Positions 5,602-25,598 of a DNA stretch of 32,000 bases are shown here, piece by piece. This DNA is from Promethearchaeum syntrophicum (GTDB lineage: Archaea; Asgardarchaeota; Lokiarchaeia; Sigyniarchaeales; Promethearchaeaceae): contig NZ_CP042905.2 in assembly GCF_008000775.2 (NCBI RefSeq), positions 660,001-692,000 on the forward strand. Reading direction: 5' to 3'. How positions within the stretch are numbered: position 1 is the first letter of the stretch; each line of letters starts with the position of its first letter. The notes under the pieces are model-generated. The model worked only from the letters and a program-made list of their open reading frames with translations, was not told where the DNA came from and made no database searches. A program made the translations under genes and the position numbers.

Positions 5602-6705
5602 TTATTTTTCGATTTTTTCCTCTTTCTTATCATTAATCTCTTGTTTTTCCTCTTTCTCTTTTTGTTCTTTATCGGGTGTATAAAAAAAAGAAATAAAATC
5701 CATACTTTGATCGAAAGCTAAGTGCCGATCTGCTATAGCATCCAGATGAAGCAAATCCCTCATAAAAGCAACATTATTATGCCTTTGAGCAAATTCTTGA
5801 ATATGAGATTTGAAACCCTCGATATTGAGTACATTATAATCTTCAATTAATTTACTGATCTCAAAATTACCCCCTTCTAGAATGTAGGTTTGGAATTGCT
5901 TCCTATCTTTACTTCTTTTCATTGAAATTTTTTCAAAATCAAGACGTAGCATAATGTATATAATTATGAAAACAAACGAAAATTGAATGATATCTGCTGA
6001 TGGATTAACATCGGTTGTAGGAATGATTAATCGCAAGAAAAATAAAATCGGATAGTCATCAATTAAAGCATTGAGTGGATCTAAATTGACTGCAACAAAA
6101 GATCCGAGCCATGCGATCAATGTACACAATATGGTTTTTCCTAAGAAACAAGGAGGAATCGATTTCCAGTATGGATATTTCATCATACCCAAAGGAACTA
6201 GAATGGCATCATCAGGGAAGGGAGTCAATGCGAAAAAGAAGACTGTTAATGGAATTCTGGCTGGTTTTTCTTCGAATTTTAGTTTTATTCGATGAAATTT
6301 CTCTCCCATCTCCGATGATTTCATCTTTTTAGAGGCTCCTATTACCCTTCCAATAATGTAACTAGTAATTTCTCCAACGGCTGCTCCGAGTCCTGATACG
6401 ATTCCTAAAAGAATCCAGTTCGGATAACTTTGTGCGATGTCGTATACAATCAAAATATATGGGAATACAATTAAAATACTAGTATTTCCGAAAGTGGCAA
6501 ATGCAAATGCGGTTAATAGAGCTGTTGTAGATCCAACAGCTATATCGTGCCAGTGCATTGATAATGATGCAATATTATCATAAATCCATGTGTCTTCTTT
6601 AATTATAAAAGCTAATACATACAAAAACGTCAAAATGACAAAAGTAAAAATTTCTAAATTTCTGATACGAAAACGAAATTTTCCAATTCTAAATTTCTTG
6701 TCCAT
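5602..6705 (-). CDS. Integral membrane protein (possible VTT/DedA-YqaA-like domain) with a soluble C-terminal domain and a Lys/Glu-rich tail
   Basis: Several hydrophobic helices, and TPFPDDAILVPLGMM is reminiscent of YqaA/DedA-type VTT domains (weak). The ORF is open to 6786, but that start would overlap the divergent gene at 6768. The Met at 6705 (MDKKFRIGKFRF, basic, just before TM1) is the more plausible start. Confidence 0.5.
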   Translation of the reverse strand: MDKKFRIGKFRFRIRNLEIFTFVILTFLYVLAFIIKEDTWIYDNIASLSMHWHDIAVGSTTALLTAFAFATFGNTSILIVFPYILIVYDIAQSYPNWILLGIVSGLGAAVGEITSYIIGRVIGASKKMKSSEMGEKFHRIKLKFEEKPARIPLTVFFFALTPFPDDAILVPLGMMKYPYWKSIPPCFLGKTILCTLIAWLGSFVAVNLDPLNALIDDYPILFFLRLIIPTTDVNPSADIIQFSFVFIIIYIMLRLDFEKISMKRSKDRKQFQTYILEGGNFEISKLIEDYNVLNIEGFKSHIQEFAQRHNNVAFMRDLLHLDAIADRHLAFDQSMDFISFFYTPDKEQKEKEEKQEINDKKEEKIEK

Positions 6706-6767
6706 GAGTTTATTTTGAAGAAGAGAATTAAAAAATTTTGTAGTATTTATTAATTTACTGATATCAA

Positions 6768-7880
6768 ATGAAATTAATACTACCAATTGCTGGAGTAGGT
6801 CTTAGGTTAAGGCCTTTTACAAGCACAAAACCGAAAGGATTCGTACAAATTGCTGGATCTAGGGGAGTTGATCATATTTTAAAGAAAATAGGATCATCAT
6901 TGCCAGATAAAACACCTATCGCATTGATTACGGGTTATAAGAAACAACAGATTCAGCAATATGTTGAAGAAAACTATTCCAATCAATTTAATCCCTCGTT
7001 TATAGAACAGATCCCAAGGGGATATAATGGAGATATTCCTTATTTTTCAGGTTTAGGCCACGCAATTCTTCTCTCTAAAGAATGGTATGAAAGAACTGCC
7101 GATATCGAAGGTAGATTAAATCCAAATGATTCATTAATCTTTTTAAGTGATATGATCCCTGTAAACAATTACGATTTCATCTTGAAGGATTTAGAAAAAG
7201 AAGATAATGATGGAATAATTGGTTCAATGACTGTCCCGGATGAAAAAACTCGCTTTTACGGGATTATCGAAACGAATAAAGATGGATATATTTATTCTCT
7301 AGTTGAAAAACCTGAGAAAACCAAATCTAATCAAGCTATTGCAGGAGTTTATGCTTTTAAAGCTAAAGCGATGAAAAGATTATATGAAATTTTAGATGAA
7401 CAATATAAAAAACACTTAGATATTATCGATACTCTGGAGAAAAAAGAATTTCAATTAACACCTGCACTTCAACAATTGGTAGAAGAAGGATTTAAATTAA
7501 AAAGTGCCTCTTTTAAAAAGGGTATCTTGGATTTTGGGCGACCTGAAGCGTTATTAAACAGTAATCGAATATTACTTGACGCAATGGATTCAGATTATCA
7601 GAAACATAAAGTTGAAATCATAGATTCAGTAATAATTAATCCTTCAGCTATTGAGACTGGAACAAAAATTGTGCATTCAGTAGTTGGACCTTATTCCAGT
7701 ATAGGAAAAAATTGTGTAATTGAAGATTGTAACCTAAATAATGTTGTTATAGGTGACAATTGTGTTTTAAAAAAAATTATAACTAGGAAGTCTATTGTAG
7801 GAGATTTTGTCCAGATCGAATCCATCATTAAAAATCATATGACAATAGGGGACAACACAACCCTTTATAGCGATTTCTAG
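6768..7880 (+). CDS. Sugar-1-phosphate nucleotidylyltransferase with a C-terminal left-handed beta-helix (GMPP/GlmU-like architecture)
   Basis: N-terminal LILPIAGVGLRLRPFTSTKPKG matches the GxGxRLxPxTxxxPK NTP-transferase signature. The C-terminus has hexapeptide-like repeats (IGKNCVIEDCNLNNVVIGDNCVLKK ... IGDNTTL). Confidence 0.75.
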   Translation: MKLILPIAGVGLRLRPFTSTKPKGFVQIAGSRGVDHILKKIGSSLPDKTPIALITGYKKQQIQQYVEENYSNQFNPSFIEQIPRGYNGDIPYFSGLGHAILLSKEWYERTADIEGRLNPNDSLIFLSDMIPVNNYDFILKDLEKEDNDGIIGSMTVPDEKTRFYGIIETNKDGYIYSLVEKPEKTKSNQAIAGVYAFKAKAMKRLYEILDEQYKKHLDIIDTLEKKEFQLTPALQQLVEEGFKLKSASFKKGILDFGRPEALLNSNRILLDAMDSDYQKHKVEIIDSVIINPSAIETGTKIVHSVVGPYSSIGKNCVIEDCNLNNVVIGDNCVLKKIITRKSIVGDFVQIESIIKNHMTIGDNTTLYSDF

Positions 7881-7987
7881 CAATAATTGTTAATTAGTTA
7901 AGGATAAAACAGATCTCTAAAAAACTTTTATGAAATATTTTTAGGTCCTCGTAATTTTGTCATACTATAAGTCAATAAGCTGATATT

Positions 7988-9142
7988 ATGAAATTAAATC
8001 CTCAGAAAAACCCCCAAAAAATAGCTTTATTCGGTTTAAATTATGCAGGTAAGACATCAATCCTCAAAACAATTCTGTATGAATTTGAAGCATTTGCCCA
8101 TATTCTCCCTACAACCGGAGTAGATCGCACTGAATTGGATTTTTTTGGAAAATCTCTTCTAATTTGGGATTTTGGTGGTCAATCTGTTTATCGAGATGAT
8201 TATTTAAAGCAACCTATTAGGTATTTTCAACGTATAAAATATTTTTATTATGTTGTTGATGTGCAAGATATTGATAGGATCAAAGAGAGTGCTGAATATT
8301 TTCTCAAACTTATCAAATTAACAACAGAATACAGCGATGATTTTAAAATTTTCATCTTTTTTCATAAGATTGATCCAAATTATAGGGGAAAAACAAAATT
8401 TGAAGAATCGGAGAATCGATTCCTTGTTGAAATTCTTCCAACGATTAATGAATTAAAATTCACTCCTACTTATTTTTATACTTCTATATATAACCCTATT
8501 AGTGTTATTTCAGCTTTTTCACAACCACTATTAGGAAATGAGACAATTTATCAAACCTTAAGCGATGCCCTTGATAGTTTTTGCTTTAATATTGATCTTG
8601 AATTTGGGTTACTTTTTGTTCAAAACTTTATTATTGGTAGTCATTTCTCCGAGCCAGAAATAATCTCAAAAATTAGTAAAAAAATGACAATGTATTTGGA
8701 AGATTTAGATGAATTTGAAGATTGTCCACCCTTTACCGTCGATCCATATAAAATTTTTACAAAAAATTTCGTAATCTCAGTAGGAGACAATAATTTCTAT
8801 TTCCATTTTTCTGTAGGGATTAATATTCTAAACATTCCCGATGATATGGATGAAATTTTTGATGCTATGGATGAATACACATATAATTTGCGGAAAATAT
8901 TAGAAAATTCGGAATTAATTCGAACAGGTGAACTCAGAAATGAAGAAATTTTGAGTGGAATTAATGAATTGGAGACTAGATATATAATAACTGAAGAAGA
9001 AGAGCTCGAAGGTTTGGAACAAGAAGATAAAATCAAGAATATCCAAAGAAATTTGGAATTAGAGATAATGGAAAACAAGGTAATGGAAGAGGATGACCAA
9101 GAGAATATTGAAGAAGTTGAAGAAAATGATTTCAAAGATTGA
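7988..9142 (+). CDS. Rag/Gtr-like small GTPase with a roadblock-like C-terminal domain and an acidic tail
   Basis: G1 GLNYAGKTS; switch I PTTGVD; G3 WDFGGQ; G4 is HKID (HKxD as in Rag/Gtr, not NKxD); G5 region YTSIYNPISVISAFSQ resembles Rag TSIWD..AWS. The following segment (LLFVQNFIIGSHF) resembles the start of the Rag C-terminal roadblock domain. 384 aa fits a GTPase plus CTD architecture. Confidence 0.7.
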   Translation: MKLNPQKNPQKIALFGLNYAGKTSILKTILYEFEAFAHILPTTGVDRTELDFFGKSLLIWDFGGQSVYRDDYLKQPIRYFQRIKYFYYVVDVQDIDRIKESAEYFLKLIKLTTEYSDDFKIFIFFHKIDPNYRGKTKFEESENRFLVEILPTINELKFTPTYFYTSIYNPISVISAFSQPLLGNETIYQTLSDALDSFCFNIDLEFGLLFVQNFIIGSHFSEPEIISKISKKMTMYLEDLDEFEDCPPFTVDPYKIFTKNFVISVGDNNFYFHFSVGINILNIPDDMDEIFDAMDEYTYNLRKILENSELIRTGELRNEEILSGINELETRYIITEEEELEGLEQEDKIKNIQRNLELEIMENKVMEEDDQENIEEVEENDFKD

Positions 9143-9199
9143 TGAAAATCATTTGAAGAATGAAAAAAATTAATAACTCTTTGAGTGAAATATTTTATT

Positions 9200-10621
9200 A
9201 TGATATATGTTGCTTTTGATGAAGCTCACAAAGAACGTGGAAACTTATCTACAAATTTTAAATCACTTAGCAGTATGTTAAATGAAAATGAGTTTACTTG
9301 TTATCCTTATGCGGAATTCCCCATTGCAAAAAATAATTTAGCCCCATTCGATATTTTAGTTCTTGGATGCCCCGATAATGCGAAGTTCAGTAAGCTAGAA
9401 ATCGATACGATTAAAAATTGGGTTTTGACTGAGGGAGGCGGATTACTTATGTTAAGCCACGCAGGTGGAGATAAAGGGCGACGTTCAAATTTAAGTGAAC
9501 TTTCAGAGCAATTTGGCATAATATTTGAAAATGATCAAGTTCTTGATAATGTTAATAACATGGGTGTAGAAAATCTTCCCCTTATTACTAATTTTGGGTT
9601 TCCACATCCAATTACTGAAGAGATTTCTTCAATATGTTATCGTGCAGGATGCAGTTTAACCATTTCTAATATGTCTGTAACTCCTGTAGTATCATCAAGC
9701 GCAGATTCTGAACCCGTAGAGAGTCCATTAATATTATCAACAGAAATGGGCGAAGGTCGCATTGTAGCTATAGGGTCCTATGAAATGTTTCGAGATAAAA
9801 TATCTGGAGGATTTAATGAAGGATCTCATGCTCAATTGATATTAAATATCTTTAATTGGCTTAAAACCTCAAAAAGAGAAAAAATTCGATCTGAAGGAGG
9901 GGCAGCAACGACTCAAAATGGTTATCAAGAAGGGGTAACCACTGAAGAGACAAAATTACCTCTCGAAAATATTGACCAAAATCAAGTTTCGCAATATGCA
10001 AATATTCCTTTGAAGAGTTATCAATCCGATGTAAAAATTGTTTCAAATGTAGAATTAGTAAAAGCATTTGAAGGTATAGTAACTGATTTTTATTCATTTA
10101 AGGATAGAATGCTGAAAGAATTTGAAAATCTTCAAACCAATCTTTCTAATCTTGTGGGAGCAGTCATTGCATCAGAAGAAGATTTTGCTAATGTATCTCA
10201 TCCAACCCCCCCTGAAGATTCCTTGAATTTAACTCCTCCTCCAAGTACAAGTACCAACAATAACAAACATGATGAAAATGATGAAGAAGTAAAAATCTCA
10301 ACTCCTACTGATTATTCTTCAATAAATGAAAAATCTATTGAACTTGGAATAGAAAAAGAAAAATTTCAAGCAGAAAAACAATCCAAAATAGAGGCAAATC
10401 TTAAATTAAAAAAAACAAAAGAAGAGGTTGATGCAGAGATAGAGAGTCTTAGGAACAAATTGAATTCAATTAAAAATTTAACATCTTTTGTCGAAAAGAA
10501 ATTTTCATCAGGAAAATTATCGAAGAAAAACTATGACAAACAAACGAAAAAACTTTCAACTGATCTTAAAGAAACTCAAAATAAAATTGATGAATTAACC
10601 CAAGAATTAAAAGATATGTAA
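9200..10621 (+). CDS. GIFT-like (IFT52/GldG/DUF4350-type, GATase1-like fold) domain protein with a Pro/Ser/Thr-rich linker and a C-terminal coiled coil
   Basis: - ORF is open from GTG 9185; the first ATG is at 9200.
- aa about 7-228: FDEAH..., FDILVLGCPDNAKFSKLEIDTIKNWVLTEGGGLLMLSHAGGD, LSEQFGIIFENDQVL, GRIVAIGSYEMFRD, IFNWLKT. This pattern fits the GIFT/ABC_transp_aux/DUF4350 family.
- aa about 335-360: Pro-rich (PTPPEDSLNLTPPPSTS).
- aa about 385-478: heptad-rich K/E coiled coil. Confidence 0.5.
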   Translation: MIYVAFDEAHKERGNLSTNFKSLSSMLNENEFTCYPYAEFPIAKNNLAPFDILVLGCPDNAKFSKLEIDTIKNWVLTEGGGLLMLSHAGGDKGRRSNLSELSEQFGIIFENDQVLDNVNNMGVENLPLITNFGFPHPITEEISSICYRAGCSLTISNMSVTPVVSSSADSEPVESPLILSTEMGEGRIVAIGSYEMFRDKISGGFNEGSHAQLILNIFNWLKTSKREKIRSEGGAATTQNGYQEGVTTEETKLPLENIDQNQVSQYANIPLKSYQSDVKIVSNVELVKAFEGIVTDFYSFKDRMLKEFENLQTNLSNLVGAVIASEEDFANVSHPTPPEDSLNLTPPPSTSTNNNKHDENDEEVKISTPTDYSSINEKSIELGIEKEKFQAEKQSKIEANLKLKKTKEEVDAEIESLRNKLNSIKNLTSFVEKKFSSGKLSKKNYDKQTKKLSTDLKETQNKIDELTQELKDM

Positions 10622-10643: not shown

Positions 10644-10865
10644 TCACGTTTCTTTTTTATAACTAATTTTACTACACACAACTCCGCGTTCATGCCAATT
10701 TTCATCAATATAAATGATAGCAAAATGATCTGAATGATGGTAAACTAGCGGATAAGGCCATTTATCAGCTCTTTCTTTAAATTCCTTTTCTAAACTTTCT
10801 GTAACTTGAATAGCTAATGTTTCTTTACAGTATTCGCAATAAAATCTAATAGTTTTTCCTGTCAT
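10644..10865 (-). CDS. Small hypothetical protein (73 aa) with an N-terminal CxxC
   Basis: Intact ORF 30 nt downstream of, and co-oriented with, the dehydrogenase gene. FYCEYC motif. No family recognised. Confidence 0.35.
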   Translation of the reverse strand: MTGKTIRFYCEYCKETLAIQVTESLEKEFKERADKWPYPLVYHHSDHFAIIYIDENWHERGVVCSKISYKKET

Positions 10866-12295: not shown

Positions 12296-14473
12296 ATGAA
12301 AAATTTAAAAAAAAAATCAATTGCAATTCTCGCTTTATTCATGATATCCACATTTGCAGGCTCAATGGTTTCCAATGCGACGGCTGAAAAGAGTTATGTT
12401 TTACCCGATGACCCAGACGTCTTAAATGCTGGTCTTGCACAAATGTTTGGGATGTTCCGTGAATTTGGAGCATCAGGAGAATTGTTAGGCGAGGTTTTGA
12501 TGATGATGTTTGAAAATTTCGAAACTATGAACGCCACACAAGAAATTGATGGGGTATACGTTTTAAATGCCTCCGTCATAAAAGCACAAGAATCGGGAAA
12601 CTTCACATATGGTGAAGCACAAACCGAAGAATATACTCCTTGGGGAGTCTATAGTCTAGAAAACGCTACTCTTACAGAAGATCAAGATGAATATCCATAT
12701 TTCCTTTTAAATGAAACTGGAACTATTGAATATAATAAAACTGAAGGTGTTTCTATTACATTTATCATTTGGGATGATGATGGCACTTTTATCGATGCAC
12801 TTGATAAATTAATAAGCACTTTCAAAGAATTTAAAATGATTTCAGAAGATGATGTGCCCGATGAAGTTGCAGAAGAAGCTGCCTTAAGAGCAGTTATTTC
12901 AGCTTTAACATACTTCTTTATCCATGTTAACGATATTATCACGGGAGATGAAGTCATAGTTCTCAACACAATCGCTTTTACTAATTATGTTGCAGATTTT
13001 GATGGAAGCATCGATGCAAATTGGTATGTTACTGAAGAAGGAGTTAGAACACATTCTCGTTTACTTATTGATGCATTACCTACCTACGATGAAGATTACA
13101 CTCAAATTGCAGATTATTATCGTGATGAATTCATGCAATATCTCCTTGATGAGAATAATTTTGCTGACGGTCAAAAAACTCAAAATTACACATCATTTAG
13201 TTTCGATGTTATTGAAATTTGGTTAAAAGAGTTTCAAATATCAATTGATTCACAAGCGATTTTAGGCGCATTAGCTGGAGAAGAAGGAGCGGAATTTTTC
13301 GATGATAAGACCGCCACAGATATTTTCCAAGAATTAAAACTTGAATTTTATGTGTTTACTCATCATTTCCAGAATTGGTATTTATTTGATGATAATAAAT
13401 TTGATAAAGATTACTCTAATGCCACTACTGAGATTCAAGATCAAGCAGAAGCGGCAGTTGGAAACGGTGTTCCTGATGTTCTTTTTGAAGAAATAGGTAC
13501 TTTTGAAGGTGAACCAGTACATGCGATTACAGACGCTGAAGTTGTTGATTATATTCTGTTCAGAGGCGCAGATTCTTGGGAATTCAAAGAACCCGTTTAT
13601 GATGCTGAAAATAACAAAATGGAATGGGGTATTCGTGCAGAGAATTTAGGATTTAGGGTAATTCCTATGGGATTAAACGATGATGAAATCTCATTAACTG
13701 ATGCTCCTGTTGAATATATGGAATTCATGGAATTGGGATTTTCATTTGAACCTGAAAATAAAAAAGTAGTTGAAACCGATGATTATATAAACGCACAAGG
13801 TCAAGAGACAATGGGATCTGCCAAAGTCAAACTTATTCAAAGCTTTGGACAATGGGACTTAGATACAGATGGTAAACCATTTACTCCACATTTAAAGAAT
13901 ACAAGTTTAGATTTAACTACAGTATATATGAGCACAATTTTCCACTTTAAACTTGCAATTGAAAATAAACAGATTGTTGATGAAGGTGAAACTCCCTCAG
14001 CTGGATTACTTAATGAAACAAATTATGACAGAGACACTCATCACATTAGAGTTGGAGATATCAACCAAGAATTGCCTTTAGCAGATATCGACATTGCAGG
14101 ACCAGAATATAACCAATCAGGCGCTAACACAGGAGATTATCCAGCAGAGACAACTATCATTCCAACGGTTTATGCAGAATTTGAAGGTCAAAGTAGTGAG
14201 ACTTATGAACAAGAAGATACTTCTATAGGTCAAATTAACGCAACCATAAATATTGAGTTTTCAACGTTAATCTATGCTGTTTCCTATCCTACATTTGGAA
14301 TGGGAAATGAAAATTATACAACTGGAGACGAAATAATTCATGACCCAACATTCAGTGTGTTCATAACCACAATAAATCCAGGTGTTATTGCAATTATTTT
14401 GGTTATTGGTGCAGTCGGATTAGCAGGAATTGCTGCTGTTTTGATCACCAAAAAGAAAAATGCTCAATTTTAG
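12296..14473 (+). CDS. Secreted, highly acidic, sequon-rich surface protein with a C-terminal membrane anchor
   Basis: N-terminal signal-peptide-like MKNLKKKSIAILALFMISTFAGSMVSNA. C-terminal PGVIAIILVIGAVGLAGIAAVLITKKK (TM helix plus basic tail). By eye, 14 N-X-S/T sequons. Strong D/E bias. Confidence 0.65.
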   Translation: MKNLKKKSIAILALFMISTFAGSMVSNATAEKSYVLPDDPDVLNAGLAQMFGMFREFGASGELLGEVLMMMFENFETMNATQEIDGVYVLNASVIKAQESGNFTYGEAQTEEYTPWGVYSLENATLTEDQDEYPYFLLNETGTIEYNKTEGVSITFIIWDDDGTFIDALDKLISTFKEFKMISEDDVPDEVAEEAALRAVISALTYFFIHVNDIITGDEVIVLNTIAFTNYVADFDGSIDANWYVTEEGVRTHSRLLIDALPTYDEDYTQIADYYRDEFMQYLLDENNFADGQKTQNYTSFSFDVIEIWLKEFQISIDSQAILGALAGEEGAEFFDDKTATDIFQELKLEFYVFTHHFQNWYLFDDNKFDKDYSNATTEIQDQAEAAVGNGVPDVLFEEIGTFEGEPVHAITDAEVVDYILFRGADSWEFKEPVYDAENNKMEWGIRAENLGFRVIPMGLNDDEISLTDAPVEYMEFMELGFSFEPENKKVVETDDYINAQGQETMGSAKVKLIQSFGQWDLDTDGKPFTPHLKNTSLDLTTVYMSTIFHFKLAIENKQIVDEGETPSAGLLNETNYDRDTHHIRVGDINQELPLADIDIAGPEYNQSGANTGDYPAETTIIPTVYAEFEGQSSETYEQEDTSIGQINATINIEFSTLIYAVSYPTFGMGNENYTTGDEIIHDPTFSVFITTINPGVIAIILVIGAVGLAGIAAVLITKKKNAQF

Positions 14474-14628: not shown

Positions 14629-15675
14629 ATGAGTTTTTGGAATGAAGTAGATGGATTAATTGAAAAGGGAAAAACATCTAAGCAAATTAAAGTAACTGCA
14701 GATGATTTAATTGAACTTCGAAATAAAATGAAAGATTTACAGTTATCATTAAGTACCATAGAAAAAAATCTTCAAGTAGAAACAGAAAAGGTCAAAATTT
14801 ATCAACGAAATTTTGCAGATGAACAAGAAAAGGTTAATATGCTTCAACGTAACATATCAGAAAAGGTCTCGATAATTACTCAAAGAGAAGGAGAAATCAC
14901 GCAAATTCAGCAACATTTAAATGAAAAAAATACTATTACTACACAACTTCAAGCAGAGTTAGACAATTTAAAGGCGGATATAGGTAAACGAGATCTTGAG
15001 ATTAAAAATGCTTTCACAACTGTAACTCAAGCAGAGGAAATGCTTGGAAAAAGAGATCAACAAATAGAGGATTTTAAATCTTTAATCAATCAAAAAAATC
15101 TTGAGATCGATGAAATGAAGAGAAATTTAAATGAAGGACAACAAAATGCGGCTTCTCTTAATGGAAAAGAACAAGAATTAGAAAGATTGAGAAAAGAAAT
15201 TCAAAGTTCCCAATCGCAAGACTCTAAAGTTCCTGGATTACAATTAAAAATTCAAACTTTGCAAGCTAAGATTCAAGAATTAGAAAGTAATTCAGTCACC
15301 AGAGCAGACTTTGATTCGATTTTCAACCAAAATAAAGAGTTAGAGGGAAGATTTAATTCACTTAACTTCAAGGTTGGGGCATTAACAAATGAAAATGAGC
15401 AATTGAAAGGGGAATTAGCGGAGAAAATGAAAAAAATAAATTCTTTGACAGAACCACATGCTGTAATGACTCCTTCTTTAGGAAAATCCAACAATCCTTC
15501 TACAATTACATCTACAACAACAGATGATGCATTTGGAACTGCTAGAATTGTTTGCCCCCATTGTGGTTCTTCTAAATTAACTGTTATTGAAGATAAAAGT
15601 AGAATAATTTCCTATATCCCTGCACCAGTATATGCTAAGAAGAATGTTTGTTCTCAATGTGGTTTTGAGTTTTAA
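14629..15675 (+). CDS. Long coiled-coil protein with a C-terminal zinc ribbon
   Basis: About 270 aa of heptad-like Q/E/K/L-rich sequence, then an S/T-rich linker, then CPHCGS...(24 aa)...CSQCG. AGGTGG lies upstream of the ATG. Confidence 0.6.
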   Translation: MSFWNEVDGLIEKGKTSKQIKVTADDLIELRNKMKDLQLSLSTIEKNLQVETEKVKIYQRNFADEQEKVNMLQRNISEKVSIITQREGEITQIQQHLNEKNTITTQLQAELDNLKADIGKRDLEIKNAFTTVTQAEEMLGKRDQQIEDFKSLINQKNLEIDEMKRNLNEGQQNAASLNGKEQELERLRKEIQSSQSQDSKVPGLQLKIQTLQAKIQELESNSVTRADFDSIFNQNKELEGRFNSLNFKVGALTNENEQLKGELAEKMKKINSLTEPHAVMTPSLGKSNNPSTITSTTTDDAFGTARIVCPHCGSSKLTVIEDKSRIISYIPAPVYAKKNVCSQCGFEF

Positions 15676-18027: not shown

Positions 18028-19296
18028 TTGCTCATATTTTCCTTAATGACAATTTTTTGGGCACCTCTATTACACGTTTATCAACCACCATGGCAAGATC
18101 TCGAAATACTAAAGGAAATTTACAAAGAATGTTATGTTCCCCTTTTAACGATGTTGGAAAGGCATGAAAATGTAAAATTAACACTAAATGTTCAAGGATG
18201 TTTATTGGATTTATTGACCCGCATGGGTTTGGAAGATGCTCGAGAAATTTTGAGAAAATTAATACACAACGGAAAGGTCGAGCTTATAGGATCTGCAAAA
18301 TTTCACCCAATTCTACCTTTAATTCCTCAAGATGAAATCATTCATCAAATCAAATTAAATGAATCAACCTTGAATCATCATTTTCCTGGCTGTTCTTTAA
18401 AAGGTTTTTTTCCACCTGAGATGGCTATTTCTACAAATTTATGCCAAATAATAAAAAAATCCGGTTATTCTTGGACAATTTTGGACGGTATAGCAAATTC
18501 AGATAAATGGCCTCAAGATTATATTCAAAAAACTGAATCTGGATTAATTACTTTTTTCCGAGATTCATTTATTTCCAATATGATTTCTTTTTCAAAAATT
18601 GATGCTGATGGATTTGTAGAAAAGATATCCCAAATGCATGACAAAAATTCTAAAAATGATTATTATATCATTACAGCGCAAGATGCTGAAACATTTGGCC
18701 ACCATATAAAATTTTATGAAACAAGATTTTTGGGAAAAGTATTTTCATTAATCGAGGATCGTAATGATATTGAAATAAGTCTTATATCAAATTTAGTAGA
18801 TCATTTCCCAATTCATAAAGCAAAAAAACCTATTAAATCTTCATCTTGGAGCACTACTACTTCAGATATTGCAAGTCGTGTACCCTATCCATTATGGGCA
18901 TCCCCTTTAAATCCTGTTCACAAGTATCAATACAGAATGTTAAAAGCTTTGTACAAATTAATGGCTACTGTCGAAAAATATAATAAATTTAATGGAAAAA
19001 ACTCGGAGTTTCAAAATTATTATAAAACAGCCCGTTATTTTTATGATCAGTCAATGCATTCGTGTTGGTTATGGTGGGCATCAATGAAGCCGATGTGGAG
19101 TCCAAATTTAATTTATAAGGGCGCTGATTTAATTATGAAAGCAGCATTAAACGCTCAATTAGCACTTATAAATCTGAAAGTAGGTGTAGCAGATGAAGAT
19201 TATGGAATAATTATGGATAATGTTGAAAAATTGATGACAGAAATCATTGATCAAGAAGCAGCTGGTCAAAAAGTTAGAACATATGGTGATTTTTAA
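18028..19296 (+). CDS. Glycoside hydrolase family 57-like alpha-glucan-active enzyme
   Basis: HVYQPPWQ, VELIGSAKFHPILPLIP, FFPPEMAIS and AQDAETFGHH match GH57 conserved regions. The track start is TTG; an in-frame ATG lies six codons downstream (18046). Confidence 0.75.
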   Translation: MLIFSLMTIFWAPLLHVYQPPWQDLEILKEIYKECYVPLLTMLERHENVKLTLNVQGCLLDLLTRMGLEDAREILRKLIHNGKVELIGSAKFHPILPLIPQDEIIHQIKLNESTLNHHFPGCSLKGFFPPEMAISTNLCQIIKKSGYSWTILDGIANSDKWPQDYIQKTESGLITFFRDSFISNMISFSKIDADGFVEKISQMHDKNSKNDYYIITAQDAETFGHHIKFYETRFLGKVFSLIEDRNDIEISLISNLVDHFPIHKAKKPIKSSSWSTTTSDIASRVPYPLWASPLNPVHKYQYRMLKALYKLMATVEKYNKFNGKNSEFQNYYKTARYFYDQSMHSCWLWWASMKPMWSPNLIYKGADLIMKAALNAQLALINLKVGVADEDYGIIMDNVEKLMTEIIDQEAAGQKVRTYGDF

Positions 19297-20358: not shown

Positions 20359-21585
20359 ATGAAAGACTACAAAAAACAGAACGAATTTGATTTCACCTTT
20401 GAAGCCGTTTCTTCAACATTGAAAAACTTTGAAAACATTGCAAATCAATCCAAATCACTGAATTTTTTCATGGGATTTGATGGATATATTGATTTACTAT
20501 ACAATATGGTCCGCAATAGAAAAAATGTAATGGAATTTGAGATTTATGAATCAATGAAAGATTTTGGTCAAAAGATAGTTGATACTACGGGGAGCTCTAT
20601 TTCAATTGAAAGATCTCTTAAAAAAAAAATTGGAGGAGGATTTGCCCCAAATATGGCGCGAGCTATAGGTAATATGTCTCCAATGGCTCAAATTGATTTA
20701 TTCGGTGCTTTGGGGTATCCCAAAATCAATCCTATTTTTAAAAATCTTCCAAAGAATGTAAATTTACACTCAATTGGAACACCTGGGGAGACTTTAGCTC
20801 TTGAATTTTCGGATGGAAAAGTAATGTCGCAAGATTTTGGTGGAATTTTTGCCCTTGACTGGGAAACTGTAATTTCTCGAATAGGCGGGAGAGATAATTT
20901 AATTTCATTCTTCGAAAAAGCAGACGCGATTGGAAATGGTCATTGGAGTTTAATGCCTTATATGAGTTCATATTTACAGCATTTTTTAACGGATATTTTT
21001 CCAAATATATCTAATCTTAAAAAAAAACTATTCTTTTTAGATCCAGCAGATTTATCAAAGCGTTCAGATGGAGATATTAAAGATATGCTGAATTTATTAA
21101 TGAAAATCAATGATTTTATCCCAGTTGTCTTAAGTGTTAATGATCGAGAAGTATTTGATCTTATTAGGACATTAAAATTAGAGGATCAACTTCCTCTTAA
21201 AAAAAACGATCCTACTTCTTATTTGTTGGCGGGAAAAAAAATTAATTCAAATTTAAATTTTAGTTATTTTGTAATCCATGATCCTCATTTTGCTACAATT
21301 TCAGGAGTTGAGCAAACAAAGGTTTTTCATTATTGGATTACAGAAGGATTTACTTCAAAACCTAAATATACTGTTGCGGCTGGAGATCATTTTAATGCAG
21401 GATTATTAAACGCACTCCTATTGGGAATGAGTCCTTCAGAGTCTTGTATTATTGCCAATGCCGCTACTGCGATTTTTGTAAGAACTGGACAATCTCCTTC
21501 ACCAAAAGATTTAAAAAGATTTATCTCCCATTATTTCGATTATATAAAACAAGATATTGATAATTTTGAGATAAATAGAAATTGA
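20359..21585 (+). CDS. PfkB/ribokinase-superfamily carbohydrate kinase-like protein
   Basis: IGGGFAPNMARAIG (GG-loop-like) and C-terminal TVAAGDHFNAGLLNALLLG (GAGDxF-like anion-hole motif). AGAGGT lies upstream. Substrate unknown. Confidence 0.55.
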   Translation: MKDYKKQNEFDFTFEAVSSTLKNFENIANQSKSLNFFMGFDGYIDLLYNMVRNRKNVMEFEIYESMKDFGQKIVDTTGSSISIERSLKKKIGGGFAPNMARAIGNMSPMAQIDLFGALGYPKINPIFKNLPKNVNLHSIGTPGETLALEFSDGKVMSQDFGGIFALDWETVISRIGGRDNLISFFEKADAIGNGHWSLMPYMSSYLQHFLTDIFPNISNLKKKLFFLDPADLSKRSDGDIKDMLNLLMKINDFIPVVLSVNDREVFDLIRTLKLEDQLPLKKNDPTSYLLAGKKINSNLNFSYFVIHDPHFATISGVEQTKVFHYWITEGFTSKPKYTVAAGDHFNAGLLNALLLGMSPSESCIIANAATAIFVRTGQSPSPKDLKRFISHYFDYIKQDIDNFEINRN

Positions 21586-21617: not shown

Positions 21618-24600
21618 TTATGCAGATACAGTTATTTCCACGATATCTTCATAACCCTCGGAGGTTATTACTTGAACCCAGATAGTTTCTCCAGTAGTTA
21701 ACCCCCCTGCTATATTTGCGATATCTATATAATAAAGAGCAAGGTTTCCAGATTCACTACCTGTGAGAATATAGTCTGTTATTTCAGTTCGAGCGAGAAG
21801 ATTATCCCACATCGTAATATCACTACTAGAAATGTCTAAATATTGAAAATCCCCGGAAATACCAATTTTTAATCTAATTCCGTCAATTGTTGCACTAGTG
21901 TTATGATTGATTGATAACATTAGGTGAATCGAATCTTCGCTAGCATCTGCCATGGTATTACCATAATTTTCATGCGGTATAATTTCATCCGGATCAATTA
22001 TTCGCGTTATATTATCTGCTGTAGGTAATCGAGATGTTAAATTTACATCACTAAAAACAAACGGACTTGATGTAGTATTCACCATTACATTTAATGTGTT
22101 AGTGAGATTTAATTTAAAACCATCAAAGGATACATCAATTAATGCAATGTCGTCATGGTTTAAAATTTTGTTTCCAACTGTAATATTTACATCTTGGATT
22201 TCAATTGCTTCAGTGCCATTAAGAATAATGCTATCTAATTCTACAGGATCAAAACCAACATTCTTAACTACTAATCGTAACGATTCATTAGTAAAAGCAG
22301 ATGTCATTGAATTTTCGCCTGTTATTATCGAAATCATTGAAGATTGATTACGAGGAACAAAATAAGCATTATCAGATGCGCAAGTGTCTCCATCTTGTCC
22401 TGATATATAAATACTAACCGGTGAATTTCTTTCAACTTCTGAAACATTTGCATAAATATTTCTTTGATCTCCTGGATCTAAGAAAAGCTCTTCAGGAGTA
22501 TCAGTCCCCACAATGAAATCATTAATTTGGACTCCATTAGCATATAAACTCTCAAGACCAATTGTCTCAAAACCATCATTTCTCACAGTAAGTGTCAAAC
22601 TTCCATTTTCTAAGAGATAAGACTGTGCGTTGTAATTCAAATAGTACTCATTATGTGGAATATTCATATTTTCATAAATTGAATAATCAAAGAGGAATCT
22701 AGATTCAGGCAATATATCTAAATCACTAGGCAATATTGTTAGCTTATAATTTTCCTTATTGAATCCTAAGACGGTTTCTGCAATGCCTCCCTCGGAAGTA
22801 TGAACTCGAATATAATTACTCTCAGAAAAATCAAAGGTTGTTGCTGTTCCTGTGTCTTCTATGTAAAATGACTCCGTTTCATTAGGACCAATTATCAAGT
22901 TCAAATTAAGATCTGGATTAATTTCCATATAGTCATTGTTTATAGAGATATTTGAGATTTTTTGAGGTTGATTACCTTCGTTTTTCACGACAATTTTAGC
23001 ATTTGATTGAAATCCCGATAATTCTAATCGAGAACTTTCTCTATCTATTTCGATTTTTATTTCATCTGGAAGTTTCACTTGAGTATCAACGGTATCGTTT
23101 GAAAGCGTATATAATAAACCATTTTCCTTTTGAACGCTAACTTCCATTTCTAAATTGTAAATCTCAGAAGTATCCCAAGTTTCTTCAGTGTTAAACCAAA
23201 CATACCTGCTCTCATTTGGACTGATTGGATCGGCGCTATTTTCAACAGAAAAGTTGTATGCTTTATCTGAGACTTTCAAAGAACTAATTTCGAAATCTAA
23301 TTTTCCAGTATTCGTTATCAGAGCATTACCATATCCATTAGTATCAATATTTTGCTTGCTGATAGAAAATGAAGTGTCTAAAGGAGTGTAATCTATTTTA
23401 TACAATTTTACTAATTTATTCGCTGAAACATATGTTGGTTCAAAGAATTCTAGTTGATAATCTCCATTTACCGTTGGATATTCTTTCCATAATTTACCAT
23501 TATCGTCGACTTTGGGTGAAATACTTCCTTCAGGATATCCTCCGACTTGGATAGCTAACTGTTGGATTGGATATGAGTCTGTTTGAGAAAGACCATCAGC
23601 AGATATTAATTCATTGTTAAACAGCAGTTTTGCTAAAGTACTGTTGAACCATGCTTCTCTGTATAATCCAGATGATCCATTAATATATTTTTCTTCATCA
23701 AATACTGTATCAACTGTCTGATCTTCTCCGCCATACCAATTATCTTTGGTCAAACTTCCGTAATTTTCATAGCTTGCTGTATTATCATTACAGATACGAA
23801 CCATCCAAGGCCATTTTCCCTCATCTCCTCCTATTCCGGTCACTAAATGCCCGAAATATACTAAAACATATTCTGCTTTTAGGAGTTTGAACGCTTCCGC
23901 GCTATACCGTTCTTGCGTTTGCATCATTGCCATTCCAGTTAATCCTATCCGAGTTTGATTCCAAGTACCGTTATCATTAACAGAAGTAACATTTCCTATA
24001 GATGTGATCCAATAACCATAATCCCACCAAGATACTACAACGGCCTCACTTGGGAGATTATTATCCATCCAAGTGAGAGACTCTTCCCAATCATGAAATG
24101 ATCCCAAAGAAACTAAATCTGAATAACCCATTTGTTCTGAAGAAATCGTTATTGCATGATTTGCTTGAACGAATAATAGTAATCCGATCATGGCATAAAC
24201 AATCAAACCTTCAGGTTTTGCAATAGTTCGTTTAAGTTGTTTTTTACGCCTTCTGGTAATAGTTTTCTCTTTTTTCATTAAATTCCCAAACATTTTCAAA
24301 ATATTTGATAACGCATAACCCCCTAATAGTGCTAAAGCAGGCGCGAAAAGGAGAATAATTCGTATCATACTCCCAGTAAAGTAGAATAATGTCACTACAA
24401 AAATTACCATTAAAATATCTTCCGTATTTCCTCGACGGATTGCAAAATATACGCCAGGAACAACTAATAATAAAGGTATTAGAGAATTATAATAAAATGC
24501 ACTCCAAGGAGCTGGTGCATGTTCTCCTACTGAGGCTACTAAATGAATATCCTCACGAATGCTCGGATTTATTATAGATGCTAATCTAGATGCTAAATTA

Positions 24601-25598
24601 AAAGGAATTAAATCGGGTACTTGCCAGAATATTATTAAAGCGATTATGGCGATTGGAATTGAAGCCCATTTTATACCCGTTAGAATTTTTGTATAAACTT
24701 CCGTATCCCTTTGCATATACATAATATGATAACCAATCAGAAAAACAAGAAATAATAGTGGAACAATGAAATCCATTTCTTTTATCATCTTAGACCAAGC
24801 AAAAGAAGGATCCAAAGTAAAAATAAGTAATCCTATCCCAATGGTCGCGCTGTATGCTAATAATATACGAGCATTGTATTTGTTTGCTAATATCAGAATT
24901 GCCACAAGCAAGGGAATTAATAAAAAGGGATAAGTCAGCCCTCCCCAACTTAATGCTAAATATCCCAATGATATTCCAGCGTAAATTCCATGCGAAAGTT
25001 TTCCAGATTTCACCGCTTTGATGAAAAATAAGAAAACCAGCAAGACTGCGAACACTCCGATCGTTTCGTTGTCGTAGAAGCCACAAACAGTACGTTGCAT
25101 ATGCCCCGGTGAGAATGCTAAGAAGAAAGCGGCGATAAGTCCCGCTCGTTTATCCAAAATTTCTTTTCCGAGAAAATACATAACGAGAACGGTTGCACCC
25201 CCCATAAATGCAGGGAAATAGAATGCCACTTGGAATGGTGTTACTGGAATTCCGAGGGCTGTGATAATCCAGTAAATTATCGCAGTTGTAAAAAGCAACC
25301 CCGGTCGAAGATTAAATCTATCGACACCTTCTGGGAACCAAAATTGAAAATCATGGAAATGGAACCAATCATATAGAGACATGTTGATGACGGCTTTTGT
25401 AGAGCTGAATTGGTACCAAGGATCGAAGGCCTTGATGAGGTACGTTCCTGTAATAACTGGTGACATTCGAACTAAAACAGCGAGAATAAGAACGAAGATC
25501 AGAGCAAGATAAAAGAATGGAGCGTCGCTGGGTATTTTTACTGATGTTTTAACTTTATCAGATTGGTTTGAAAACCAATTTTTAAATTTATTAACCAT
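21618..25598 (-). CDS. aglB: Oligosaccharyltransferase AglB (STT3 homologue) with a long C-terminal extension
   Basis: WWDYGYW (aa 524-530, nt 24015-24029 for WWDYG), AFDPWYQF, GFYDNETIGVFA, SVGEHAPAPW, VNDNGTWNQT, and a multi-TM N-terminal half. aa about 740-1326 form an extra beta-rich region. Confidence 0.92.
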   Translation of the reverse strand: MVNKFKNWFSNQSDKVKTSVKIPSDAPFFYLALIFVLILAVLVRMSPVITGTYLIKAFDPWYQFSSTKAVINMSLYDWFHFHDFQFWFPEGVDRFNLRPGLLFTTAIIYWIITALGIPVTPFQVAFYFPAFMGGATVLVMYFLGKEILDKRAGLIAAFFLAFSPGHMQRTVCGFYDNETIGVFAVLLVFLFFIKAVKSGKLSHGIYAGISLGYLALSWGGLTYPFLLIPLLVAILILANKYNARILLAYSATIGIGLLIFTLDPSFAWSKMIKEMDFIVPLLFLVFLIGYHIMYMQRDTEVYTKILTGIKWASIPIAIIALIIFWQVPDLIPFNLASRLASIINPSIREDIHLVASVGEHAPAPWSAFYYNSLIPLLLVVPGVYFAIRRGNTEDILMVIFVVTLFYFTGSMIRIILLFAPALALLGGYALSNILKMFGNLMKKEKTITRRRKKQLKRTIAKPEGLIVYAMIGLLLFVQANHAITISSEQMGYSDLVSLGSFHDWEESLTWMDNNLPSEAVVVSWWDYGYWITSIGNVTSVNDNGTWNQTRIGLTGMAMMQTQERYSAEAFKLLKAEYVLVYFGHLVTGIGGDEGKWPWMVRICNDNTASYENYGSLTKDNWYGGEDQTVDTVFDEEKYINGSSGLYREAWFNSTLAKLLFNNELISADGLSQTDSYPIQQLAIQVGGYPEGSISPKVDDNGKLWKEYPTVNGDYQLEFFEPTYVSANKLVKLYKIDYTPLDTSFSISKQNIDTNGYGNALITNTGKLDFEISSLKVSDKAYNFSVENSADPISPNESRYVWFNTEETWDTSEIYNLEMEVSVQKENGLLYTLSNDTVDTQVKLPDEIKIEIDRESSRLELSGFQSNAKIVVKNEGNQPQKISNISINNDYMEINPDLNLNLIIGPNETESFYIEDTGTATTFDFSESNYIRVHTSEGGIAETVLGFNKENYKLTILPSDLDILPESRFLFDYSIYENMNIPHNEYYLNYNAQSYLLENGSLTLTVRNDGFETIGLESLYANGVQINDFIVGTDTPEELFLDPGDQRNIYANVSEVERNSPVSIYISGQDGDTCASDNAYFVPRNQSSMISIITGENSMTSAFTNESLRLVVKNVGFDPVELDSIILNGTEAIEIQDVNITVGNKILNHDDIALIDVSFDGFKLNLTNTLNVMVNTTSSPFVFSDVNLTSRLPTADNITRIIDPDEIIPHENYGNTMADASEDSIHLMLSINHNTSATIDGIRLKIGISGDFQYLDISSSDITMWDNLLARTEITDYILTGSESGNLALYYIDIANIAGGLTTGETIWVQVITSEGYEDIVEITVSA

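Follow-up and report, generated by a model that had tools for sequence, protein, structure and literature searches.

Rag/Gtr GTPases (RagA-D, Gtr1/Gtr2), which act in the Ragulator/EGO-TORC1 pathway, carry a Rag-type G domain (WDxGGQ, HKxD and TSI motifs) followed by a C-terminal roadblock domain, and are obligate heterodimers held together through the roadblock domain (RagA/B with RagC/D; Gtr1 with Gtr2). IFT52, a core subunit of IFT-B1 (5FMR, 5FMS, 8BD7), is a member of the IFT-B complex and binds IFT46, IFT70 and IFT88 through its C-terminal region. Asgard archaea encode numerous small GTPases, hardly any of which have known partners, and a GTPase-effector pair, if real, would offer insight into the origin of eukaryotic trafficking. 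Many Rag-like GTPase architectures with fused roadblock or longin domains have been described in MK-D1 (Tran et al., 2024; PMC10933270); a text search of that article found no mention of GIFT/IFT52-like proteins or of the locus considered here.

We analyzed a window of 32,000 nucleotides from Promethearchaeum syntrophicum MK-D1, in which an earlier note, made from the letters alone, had proposed that a Rag-like GTPase gene and the GIFT/coiled-coil gene directly downstream form an undescribed, co-transcribed module with GTPase state controlling the scaffold. Our preferred reading, to which we assign a probability of roughly two-thirds, is that these are two genuine and evolutionarily independent genes that were joined by a Promethearchaeum-specific rearrangement. 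The 'module' reading is weakly supported, and functional coupling of the GTPase (LokiRagM) and the GIFT/coiled-coil protein (GIFT-CC) is unproven. The features of the locus are as follows:

6768..7880, + strand: NTP-transferase plus left-handed beta-helix (LbH) protein, resembling NDP-sugar pyrophosphorylase (GMPP or eIF2B-epsilon type)
7881-7987, + strand: spacer 5' of the GTPase gene, 107 nt, with T4, T5 and T4 runs
7915..7987, + strand: conserved non-coding block 5' of the GTPase gene, including AAATATTTTTAGG
7988..9142, + strand: Rag-like GTPase 'LokiRagM' (Pfam Gtr1_RagA; PDB match 8zla_A)
8015-8533, + strand: G domain of the GTPase, residues 10-182
8546-8902, + strand: roadblock domain of the GTPase, residues 187-305 (AF2 model)
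8939-9139, + strand: long acidic C-terminal helix of the GTPase, residues 318-384
9143..9199, + strand: GTPase-GIFT spacer, 57 nt, longest T run T4, no T5 run
9163-9176, + strand: A-run plus TTAATAA, -37..-24 from the GIFT ATG, candidate BRE/TATA element
9200..10621, + strand: IFT52-like GIFT/coiled-coil protein of 473 aa, counted from the ATG (Pfam IFT52_GIFT)
9200-9892, + strand: GIFT domain, residues 1-231
C-terminal to the GIFT domain, + strand: disordered linkers of GIFT-CC
10046-10168, + strand: GIFT-CC helix, residues 283-323
10418-10615, + strand: conserved C-terminal helical hairpin of GIFT-CC, residues 407-472
10644..10865, - strand: small conserved ORF of 73 aa, converging on the GIFT gene and carrying CxxC and WPYPL motifs

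The GTPase is a member of the Rag/Gtr family by sequence and by predicted fold. Its Pfam Gtr1_RagA score (1e-23, 84.4 bits against a cut-off of 22) bears out the identity proposed for it, and its PDB match is 8zla_A (E=3.9e-254, residues 2-384). 8ZLA (GDP) and 9M28 (GTP) are deposited crystal structures of the GTPase, titled 'monomeric Rag-like small GTPase from Asgard Lokiarchaeota (LokiRagM)', and alignment suggests that the crystallized and window proteins are essentially one sequence; the idea that this GTPase was undescribed must therefore be dropped. No published account of these structures was found in the searchable literature, and the 8ZLA paper may lie beyond that coverage. A second deposited Asgard Rag-like protein, 'LokiRagO' (8YL2), is also among the closest systems. 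Across 31 homologues, the GxxxxGKT, T42, WDFGGQ, HKxD and TSI motifs align as invariant, at the level of columns G16, G21, K22, S24, T42, W60-D61-F62-G63-x-Q65, H126-K127-x-D129 and T165, with T23, S166 and I167 nearly invariant. The AF2 model places an a-b-b-a-b-b-b-a roadblock fold C-terminal to the G domain, and Foldseek lists Asgard entries first, followed by RagA and Gtr1, the best non-Asgard structural matches, aligned across both domains (~300-318 columns, E 1e-15 to 1e-17). LokiRagM thus combines the family's G domain motifs, a profile score above the cut-off and a fused C-terminal roadblock domain. It differs from its eukaryotic relatives in being 'monomeric', according to the depositors' titles, where Rag/Gtr proteins are obligate dimers; in its inter-domain geometry (rmsd ~13-14 Å to RagA/Gtr1 over both domains); and in its additional acidic helix of ~65 residues. 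No second Rag-like gene adjoins it, and the 32-kb window holds no Ragulator/EGO, TORC1 or GATOR partner gene. That LokiRagM acts as a GTP/GDP switch is shown by its deposited structures with GDP and with GTP, together with its intact catalytic motifs.

GIFT-CC corresponds to DSAG12_01155 of P. syntrophicum (100% identity). Its description as a GIFT/coiled-coil protein held up, with a Pfam IFT52_GIFT match (7.5e-17, 61.7 bits against a cut-off of 27.2) and a long coiled coil. Searched against the PDB, the family profile gave significant E-values for IFT52 alone (5fmr, 2.6e-15). The AF2 model has a pLDDT of ~90 over residues 1-231, and its top Foldseek matches are IFT52 N-terminal domains (5fmr/5fms: E 1e-17 to 3e-15, target TM 0.82-0.91 at 22-24% identity, rmsd 1.9-4.3 Å, ~2 Å for 5fms), so that the sequence profile and the solved IFT52 N-terminal fold both identify a GIFT domain. 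The two proteins have in common the motifs S-x-GG-[DE], EQFG and GS-x-x-MF-x-DK and a layout of GIFT domain, proline-rich or disordered linker and helical C-terminus. Homology in sequence and fold was detected over these 231 N-terminal residues; beyond them, neither Pfam nor the PDB profile search matched GIFT-CC to IFT52, and superposition of the full-length model on 8bd7_B gave an rmsd of 49 Å. Unlike IFT52, GIFT-CC is prokaryotic, has no known involvement with IFT46, IFT70 or IFT88 homologues or with cilia, and has as its conserved genomic partner a nucleotidyltransferase instead of IFT proteins. Other GIFT/class-I-glutamine-amidotransferase-like domains, in GldG (bacterial, ABC_transp_aux), an OST complex subunit (6c26_B) and STM3548, belong to the same fold superfamily and match less well than IFT52 does (Foldseek E 1e-8 versus 1e-17); their link to sugar/glycan metabolism parallels the NDP-sugar-pyrophosphorylase-like neighbor of GIFT-CC. 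In contrast to these proteins, GIFT-CC has no signal peptide, membrane segment or adjacent ABC transporter genes. At least 533 proteins from across the Asgard lineages belong to the family, and some of them also match PF09822. Most likely GIFT-CC is a cytoplasmic adaptor, in which the IFT52-type GIFT domain would provide a binding platform, the disordered linkers would serve as spacers and the conserved hairpin would mediate oligomerization or partner binding.

The GTPase ORF (384 aa) ends in a TGA stop at 9140-9142, and the GIFT ORF opens at a GTG (9185) or an ATG (9200), 42 or 57 nt downstream, respectively. The ATG is the likely start, since M-x-x-VAFD is where the Pfam GIFT profile starts and where every homologue does too; starting from the GTG would add five codons. 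The ORF list and our reading of the sequence agree with the earlier note on this geometry: both genes lie on one strand at the spacing it gave, with no T run of five or more between them, 107 nt separate the GTPase gene from the gene before it, and the gene after the pair is on the opposite strand. Among same-strand spacers of this window, T5-T10 runs occur in four of the five that are at least 76 nt long and in none of 30 nt or less, which gives the lack of such a run some weight and leaves the 57-nt GTPase-GIFT spacer intermediate between the two length classes. Related loci L001, where the spacer is 38 nt, and L002 likewise have no oligo-T signal between the two genes. A promoter/terminator scan with bacterial models, uninformative on archaeal DNA, returned matches at or below shuffle expectation, and a tRNA scan of the window found none. 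The convergent 73-aa ORF delimits the transcription unit at its 3' end; in L001-L007 and L085, tblastn places it directly 3' of GIFT (40-91% identity), with a 35% match in L008, a locus without a called GIFT ORF, and it has no family match in Pfam or NCBIfam.

Conservation of the pair in related genomes, which the earlier note had proposed as a check, failed beyond a single genus. Only Promethearchaeum-type contigs (the window, L001-L003, L085 and L086, the last two preserving the order NTP-GTPase-GIFT) show the adjacency. All sampled genomes of this type have it, at identities as low as 68% for GIFT and 79% for the GTPase, and such stability would fit selection for co-expression. It is absent in Harpocratesius (L007), which belongs to the same family, in L. 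ossiferum (L004) and in ~65 further Asgard loci. LokiRagM orthologues are confined to Lokiarchaeia, and those of sister lineages (46-53% identity) lie away from the GIFT gene. In all four loci that were read (L081, L084, L087 and L088), a gene for an LpxL-like protein follows 28-75 nt downstream, these neighbors being 448-468 aa long and homologous to one another; the L. ossiferum orthologue has a third gene context. Among 16 database hits for the LpxL-like neighbor none was from Promethearchaeum, so the GTPase may have exchanged an earlier partner for a new one. Orthologues that do not adjoin a GIFT gene also carry the acidic helix, so this helix did not evolve for GIFT-CC. Two further ideas were discarded: a 464-aa protein 3' of the Harpocratesius GTPase, considered as a diverged GIFT-CC paralogue, showed no similarity to it (BLASTP E of 8.5) and is LpxL/LPLAT-like, and contig L170, which seemed to link a Promethearchaeum-like GTPase to an LpxL-like gene, has no GTPase sequence upstream. 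A metagenome scan with the GTPase alignment recovered mostly distant paralogues (≤43% identity) and served as a negative control for a general Rag-like GTPase/GIFT link; no GIFT gene lay within 3.5 kb at any of 80 Rag/Arf-like paralogue loci among the matches listed. As an operon, then, the pair has the short same-strand spacer free of a terminator signal and lacks conservation across lineages, and gene order gives the proposed GTPase-plus-scaffold system no support beyond Promethearchaeum.

The view from the GIFT gene is different. We collected 78 loci with a GIFT ORF, 74 of them with upstream sequence. The gene immediately 5' is the NTP-transferase in 68 of these 74 and the Rag-like GTPase in three, all Promethearchaeum, in which the NTP-transferase sits one gene further up. 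NTP-transferase and GIFT genes are 39-227 nt apart outside Promethearchaeum (L089, L004 and L007, for instance, run directly from one to the other), so the GTPase gene cannot fit between them. The second gene upstream is a GPN-loop GTPase in 61 loci, at a median of 49 nt from the NTP-transferase; this gene is not at that position in the Lokiarchaeia loci L004-L007, L089 and the window. Gene order across the sampled loci indicates that the ancestral, Asgard-wide arrangement is an NTP-transferase/LbH gene followed by GIFT-CC, usually with the GPN-loop GTPase just 5'. The NTP-transferase itself matches Pfam NTP_transferase (3.8e-23) and LbH_EIF2B (1.4e-9), falls under all NCBIfam equivalog cut-offs (best rmlA_long, 129 bits against 320) and has 7whr as its best PDB match, followed by GMPP and RmlA-type enzymes. 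A degenerate eIF2B-gamma/epsilon-like pseudo-enzyme is unlikely, as all the canonical nucleotidyltransferase motifs (GxGxR..P, KPK, D128, YG, EKP and LDxG) are invariant across 14 Asgard homologues. The protein is apparently an active, divergent sugar-nucleotidyltransferase. Given this conserved adjacency, the functional partner of GIFT-CC would be the NDP-sugar-pyrophosphorylase-like enzyme rather than LokiRagM.

The regions upstream of each gene show how an inserted gene might be expressed. The block at 7915..7987 is near-identical in the window and L001-L003, whereas the remaining spacer varies from 55 to 116 nt; it is probably the promoter and 5' leader of the GTPase gene. Ahead of the GIFT gene, pattern matching finds a comparable A-rich/TATA-like element ~43 to 24 nt 5' of the ATG in 7 of 10 Lokiarchaeia loci, each element compared spanning 8-13 nt, and its presence does not depend on which of the two genes, GTPase or NTP-transferase, comes before GIFT. 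The element of the window aligns with outgroup GIFT upstream regions, as AT-rich sequence in an AT-rich genome. With a TATA-like element still in the spacer where outgroups have theirs, the GIFT gene probably has its own internal promoter, a suggestion qualified by that same base composition. Read-through from the GTPase gene is also plausible because the spacer is short and free of an oligo-T terminator signal. The co-transcription suggested earlier is thus plausible, alongside a candidate promoter 5' of GIFT.

Together these observations favor a rearrangement in which the GTPase gene most likely moved into an older NTP-transferase-to-GIFT pair. Starting from the ancestral order, the Lokiarchaeia-specific monomeric LokiRagM gene would have been inserted into the NTP-GIFT spacer, 5' of the retained GIFT promoter-like element, after the split of Promethearchaeum and Harpocratesius. 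GTPase transcripts, meeting no oligo-T terminator, would probably continue into the GIFT gene, which would probably also use an additional start site of its own. A functional link between the two proteins restricted to Promethearchaeum is possible. In its fullest form, a relocated LokiRagM without its LpxL-like neighbor would have been recruited, on a shared transcript, to control GIFT-CC assembly or localization, its nucleotide state setting binding, with the free roadblock surface as one possible contact and the acidic helix against the lysine-rich GIFT-CC hairpin as another. Such recruitment would suit the same-strand 57-nt spacing without a T5 run, the adjacency in every Promethearchaeum-type contig, the title 'monomeric', which leaves the roadblock domain free of a Rag partner, and the failure to detect a Promethearchaeum homologue of the LpxL-like neighbor. 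We nonetheless consider it unlikely, with adjacency ending at the genus, the acidic helix shared by orthologues with no adjoining GIFT gene, GIFT-CC Asgard-wide but LokiRagM orthologues restricted to Lokiarchaeia, and a promoter-like element retained in the spacer. The broader proposal of an undescribed, Asgard-wide GPN/NTP-transferase/GIFT-CC system, rewired in Promethearchaeum so that LokiRagM, minus its LpxL-like partner, is co-expressed with and controls GIFT-CC as a genuine IFT52 homologue, strikes us as quite improbable.

At the other extreme, the genes could be neighbors by pure coincidence, in separate transcription units divided by an unrecognized terminator after the GTPase gene. The conserved TATA-like element 5' of GIFT would fit this, as would an ancestral GIFT gene on its own promoter, which in L004 and L007 lies 3' of T-rich terminators of the NTP gene. 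Because the window, L001 and L002 all lack an oligo-T signal between the two genes, and the L001 spacer is only 38 nt, we find it very unlikely. Lowest of all we place a three-gene unit, with the inserted GTPase regulating the whole NTP-transferase/GIFT-CC pair in the stead of the GPN-loop GTPase. That GPN gene is immediately 5' of the NTP-transferase in 61 loci at a median of 49 nt and missing there from L004-L007, L089 and the window, and a different GTPase now lies inside the pair in Promethearchaeum. However, Lokiarchaeia lineages without an inserted GTPase (L004-L007) had already lost the GPN link, so there was no need for a replacement; Rag-type GTPases have no mechanistic relation to the GPN-loop kind; and the 107-nt NTP-GTPase spacer, which contains T runs and a conserved promoter-like block of its own, argues against one operon.

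Our preferred reading, a Promethearchaeum-specific joining of independent genes, shifts interest to other associations. The Asgard-wide GPN/NTP-transferase/GIFT-CC cluster is a lead of more interest than the GTPase-GIFT pair. No published description of this locus, of the NTP-transferase/GIFT-CC association (with the GPN-loop GTPase) or of a LokiRagM-LpxL-like association was found in the searchable literature. MK-D1 is the main experimental Asgard model, and the demonstration that GTPase and GIFT-CC are not a conserved pair counsels caution in reading gene order there. Gene order appears to be a weak guide to GTPase partners, which fits the portion of Tran et al., 2024 (PMC10933270) drawn on here. 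LokiRagM control of GIFT-CC, if true, would be a case of a prokaryotic small GTPase gating an IFT-B-type scaffold. The better-supported leads are GIFT-CC, conserved in the sampled Asgard archaea and almost always directly after the NTP-transferase, and the LokiRagM orthologues of sister genera, which are encoded beside an LpxL-like, acyltransferase-like protein. As LokiRagM has already been crystallized, both associations are testable with producible proteins.

Two adjacent genes of the window encode a Rag-like GTPase and a protein with an IFT52-like GIFT domain and a coiled coil (GIFT-CC), and an earlier note had proposed that they form a co-transcribed GTPase-plus-scaffold module. ORF calls, reading of the sequence and a count of T runs bore out the layout behind that proposal: the genes share a strand, the GTPase stop lies 42 nt from a GTG and 57 nt from an ATG of GIFT-CC, and the spacer holds no T5 run. 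The 107-nt spacer preceding the GTPase gene and the opposite strand of the gene after GIFT-CC were likewise as described. ATG 9200, rather than GTG 9185, is the likely GIFT-CC start, as it coincides with the beginning of the Pfam GIFT profile and of every homologue. The features discussed below are as follows.

6768-7880, plus strand: NTP-transferase with a left-handed beta-helix (LbH)
about 7915-7987, plus strand: conserved non-coding block (about 65 nt) preceding the GTPase ATG, including …AAAAAACTTTTATGAAATATTTTTAGGTCCTCGTAATTTTGTCATACTATAAGTC…
7988-9142, plus strand: GTPase ORF, 384 aa, TGA stop at 9140-9142 (AF2 model: G domain, residues 10-182; roadblock domain, a-b-b-a-b-b-b-a, residues 187-305; long acidic helix, residues 318-384)
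9163-9176, plus strand: A-run plus TTAATAA in the spacer, -37 to -24 from the GIFT-CC ATG
9185 (GTG) or 9200 (ATG)-10621, plus strand: GIFT-CC ORF (AF2 model and alignment: after the GIFT domain, disordered linkers and, at residues 283-323, a helix)
10418-10615, plus strand: C-terminal helical hairpin of GIFT-CC, residues 407-472, well conserved, pLDDT above 90

The note's gene identities also held. The GTPase matches Pfam Gtr1_RagA (1e-23) and is no novel protein, being already known from the PDB as LokiRagM: its sequence matches 8zla_A over residues 2-384 (E=3.9e-254), and Foldseek titles list structures with GDP (8ZLA, released 2025-11-26) and GTP (9M28, released 2026-03-04), as well as the tetrameric paralogue type "LokiRagO" (8YL2). 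None of the literature searched described these entries. The P-loop, T42, WDFGGQ, HKxD and TSI, all motifs of the Rag type, are preserved across 31 aligned homologues. Outside Asgard entries, the two domains together match RagA and Gtr1 best in structure, with the domains differently oriented (rmsd about 13–14 Å). The protein thus has the sequence and architecture of the Rag family but, by the depositors' description, not its dimer. LokiRagM binds both GDP and GTP in the deposited structures and retains the catalytic glutamine and switch motifs, and we infer that it acts as a molecular switch.

GIFT-CC, 100% identical to DSAG12_01155 of P. syntrophicum MK-D1 (4.32-Mb contig), carries a genuine IFT52-type GIFT domain. 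Pfam finds IFT52_GIFT (7.5e-17) plus a coiled coil; a profile built from 20 family members gave significant PDB matches to IFT52 chains only (5fmr, 2.6e-15), with motifs visibly common to IFT52 and the family in the alignment; and the AF2 model, with pLDDT about 90 over residues 1-231, superposes on the N-terminal domains of mouse and Chlamydomonas IFT52 (TM 0.82–0.91). STM3548, an oligosaccharyltransferase subunit and GH42 domains are weaker structural relatives. By sequence and model GIFT-CC counts among GIFT-domain proteins, which does not imply functional orthology with IFT52. The 2016 work of Taschner and colleagues, source of 5FMR and 5FMS, reportedly treats the eukaryotic IFT52 GIFT domain as a protein-interaction module, and we infer that GIFT-CC is a cytoplasmic adaptor. 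The family has at least 533 database hits, in genomes named as Loki-, Hod-, Thor-, Hermod-, Odin- and Sigyn-type Asgard. Among Asgard archaea the C-terminal hairpin is the second most conserved part (consensus …LExKLNSIxNLxxFVEKKxxxGKLxxKxYEKQxKKL…), and its motif, judged by eye, looks similar to that of a short, SHOCT-like C-terminal domain. Four loci (L012:5098-5823, L072:7537-8247, L074:3887-4591 and L071:5639-6115) have a second ORF of 158–241 aa directly 3' of the GIFT gene, with a weak BLAST match to GIFT-CC (23–27% identity), which may reflect a split or frameshifted gene, or duplication of the coiled-coil tail.

Beyond one genus, gene order did not bear out the proposed pairing. Taking one genome per species, we called ORFs in 80 loci, compared them with the window proteins and clustered them; 78 contained a GIFT ORF, and contig ends upstream in four left 74 assessable. 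In 68 of these, a homologue of the NTP-transferase (42–65% identity) lies immediately upstream of GIFT on the same strand, with gaps of 39–227 nt (median 149 nt) and thus no room for a hidden gene. The Rag-like GTPase (84–86% identity) stands between the two in only three loci (L001–L003), all from Promethearchaeum sp. Two further Promethearchaeum-type loci (L085 and L086) share this order (GTPase 79%, GIFT 68–74% identity), whereas in L. ossiferum (L004), Harpocratesius repetitus (L007), L005, L006 and L089 GIFT directly follows the NTP-transferase gene. The pair has the proximity of an operon but not the evolutionary conservation.

Full-length GTPase orthologues occur in other Lokiarchaeia (44–53% identity), and all four loci compared (46–53%) carry a same-strand gene for a 448–468 aa protein 28–75 nt downstream.

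L081:5001-7695, same strand: GTPase orthologue and LpxL-like gene (Harpocratesius sp.)
L084:5001-7726, same strand: the same pair
L087:4001-6679, same strand: the same pair
L088:4001-6735, same strand: the same pair

These four proteins are mutually homologous (45–55% identity), weakly resemble LpxL/lysophospholipid acyltransferases and showed no similarity to GIFT-CC. Contigs of identical length in the hit tables imply two more such pairs, and the L. ossiferum orthologue has a third gene context. The GTPase/LpxL-like pair, not found in the literature searched, is better conserved than the GTPase-GIFT pair. Among the matches listed, none of 80 metagenomic Rag/Arf-like paralogue loci has GIFT, NTP-transferase or LpxL-like genes within 3.5 kb. 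Tran et al. (2024; PMC10933270) noted that small GTPase genes in MK-D1 generally lie outside operons with their regulators.

T5–T10 runs occur in four of the five same-strand window spacers of at least 76 nt and in none of those of 30 nt or less; with only T4 in its 57 nt, the GTPase-GIFT spacer makes read-through plausible. Elements similar to the A-run/TTAATAA are found roughly 43 to 24 nt ahead of the GIFT ATG in other Promethearchaeum spacers (38 to 77 nt long), and also in outgroups where GIFT directly follows the NTP-transferase gene; a pattern match found A-run/TATA-type elements in 7 of 10 loci. The AT-richness of the genome makes these calls tentative. Because a comparable element holds a like position across these genomes, an ancestral GIFT promoter may have been retained 3' of an inserted GTPase gene. 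Four Promethearchaeum genomes share the block at about 7915-7987 almost unchanged while the rest of the spacer varies; the block probably serves as promoter and leader, or as a regulatory site.

The parsimonious reading of these gene orders has the GTPase gene moving into the NTP-transferase-GIFT spacer after Promethearchaeum and Harpocratesius, members of the same family, diverged. A recruitment of LokiRagM to GIFT-CC specific to Promethearchaeum would fit the stability of the adjacency within the genus, the plausible read-through and the LpxL-like family, whose 16 database hits include none from Promethearchaeum. We consider it improbable. The best-supported functional link of GIFT-CC is with the NTP-transferase, and in most Asgard archaea also a GPN-loop GTPase, not with LokiRagM, because this NDP-sugar-pyrophosphorylase-like enzyme is the conserved genomic partner. 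That enzyme keeps every canonical nucleotidyltransferase motif and scores under all NCBIfam equivalog cut-offs.

In most non-Loki Asgard loci (61), a GPN-loop GTPase gene (PF03029, 5e-51; NF010340, 4e-75) precedes the NTP-transferase gene at a median of 49 nt, two genes upstream of GIFT, and conserved uncharacterised proteins of ~324 aa (with a C-terminal coiled coil) and ~130 aa are usually encoded further upstream. The co-oriented cluster, seen across L010–L079 (e.g. L060:2248-7404), runs ~130-aa protein, ~324-aa protein, GPN-loop GTPase, NTP-transferase/LbH, GIFT-CC. Window 6768-10621 is its Lokiarchaeial remnant; the literature searched gave no description of the cluster.

Several neighbours deserve mention. 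A VTT/DedA-domain membrane protein gene (5602-6786, minus strand) overlaps the NTP-transferase start by 19 nt from its listed TTG; since homologues are 349–390 aa, its true start is probably further downstream. This divergent layout is kept in Lokiarchaeia (L003–L007, L085, L089). A 73-aa ORF (10644-10865, minus strand), convergent with GIFT and carrying CxxC and WPYPL(V)(Y)xH motifs, matched no known family; it recurs directly 3' of GIFT in L001–L007 and L085 (40–91% identity), with a 35% match in L008. A 725-aa protein (12296-14473, plus strand) with a signal-like segment at its N-terminus and a membrane anchor at its C-terminus matched no Pfam family; at 52–78% identity, it keeps its place in Promethearchaeum, Harpocratesius (L007) and L006; the 348-aa protein encoded next (14629-15675, plus strand) matched no known family. 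The window also encodes a GH57 glycoside hydrolase (18028-19296, plus strand), a prokaryotic ketohexokinase (20359-21585, plus strand) and a 1326-aa STT3/AglB-type oligosaccharyltransferase (21618-25598, minus strand), so that sugar/glycosylation genes lie no more than 10–15 kb from the NTP-transferase/GIFT pair.

The significance of the GTPase-GIFT pair is modest, because it brings together, in one genus only, a protein of known structure and one with an annotated domain. Greater potential lies in the Asgard-wide GPN/NTP-transferase/IFT52-like cluster and in the pairing of LokiRagM with an LpxL-like protein.
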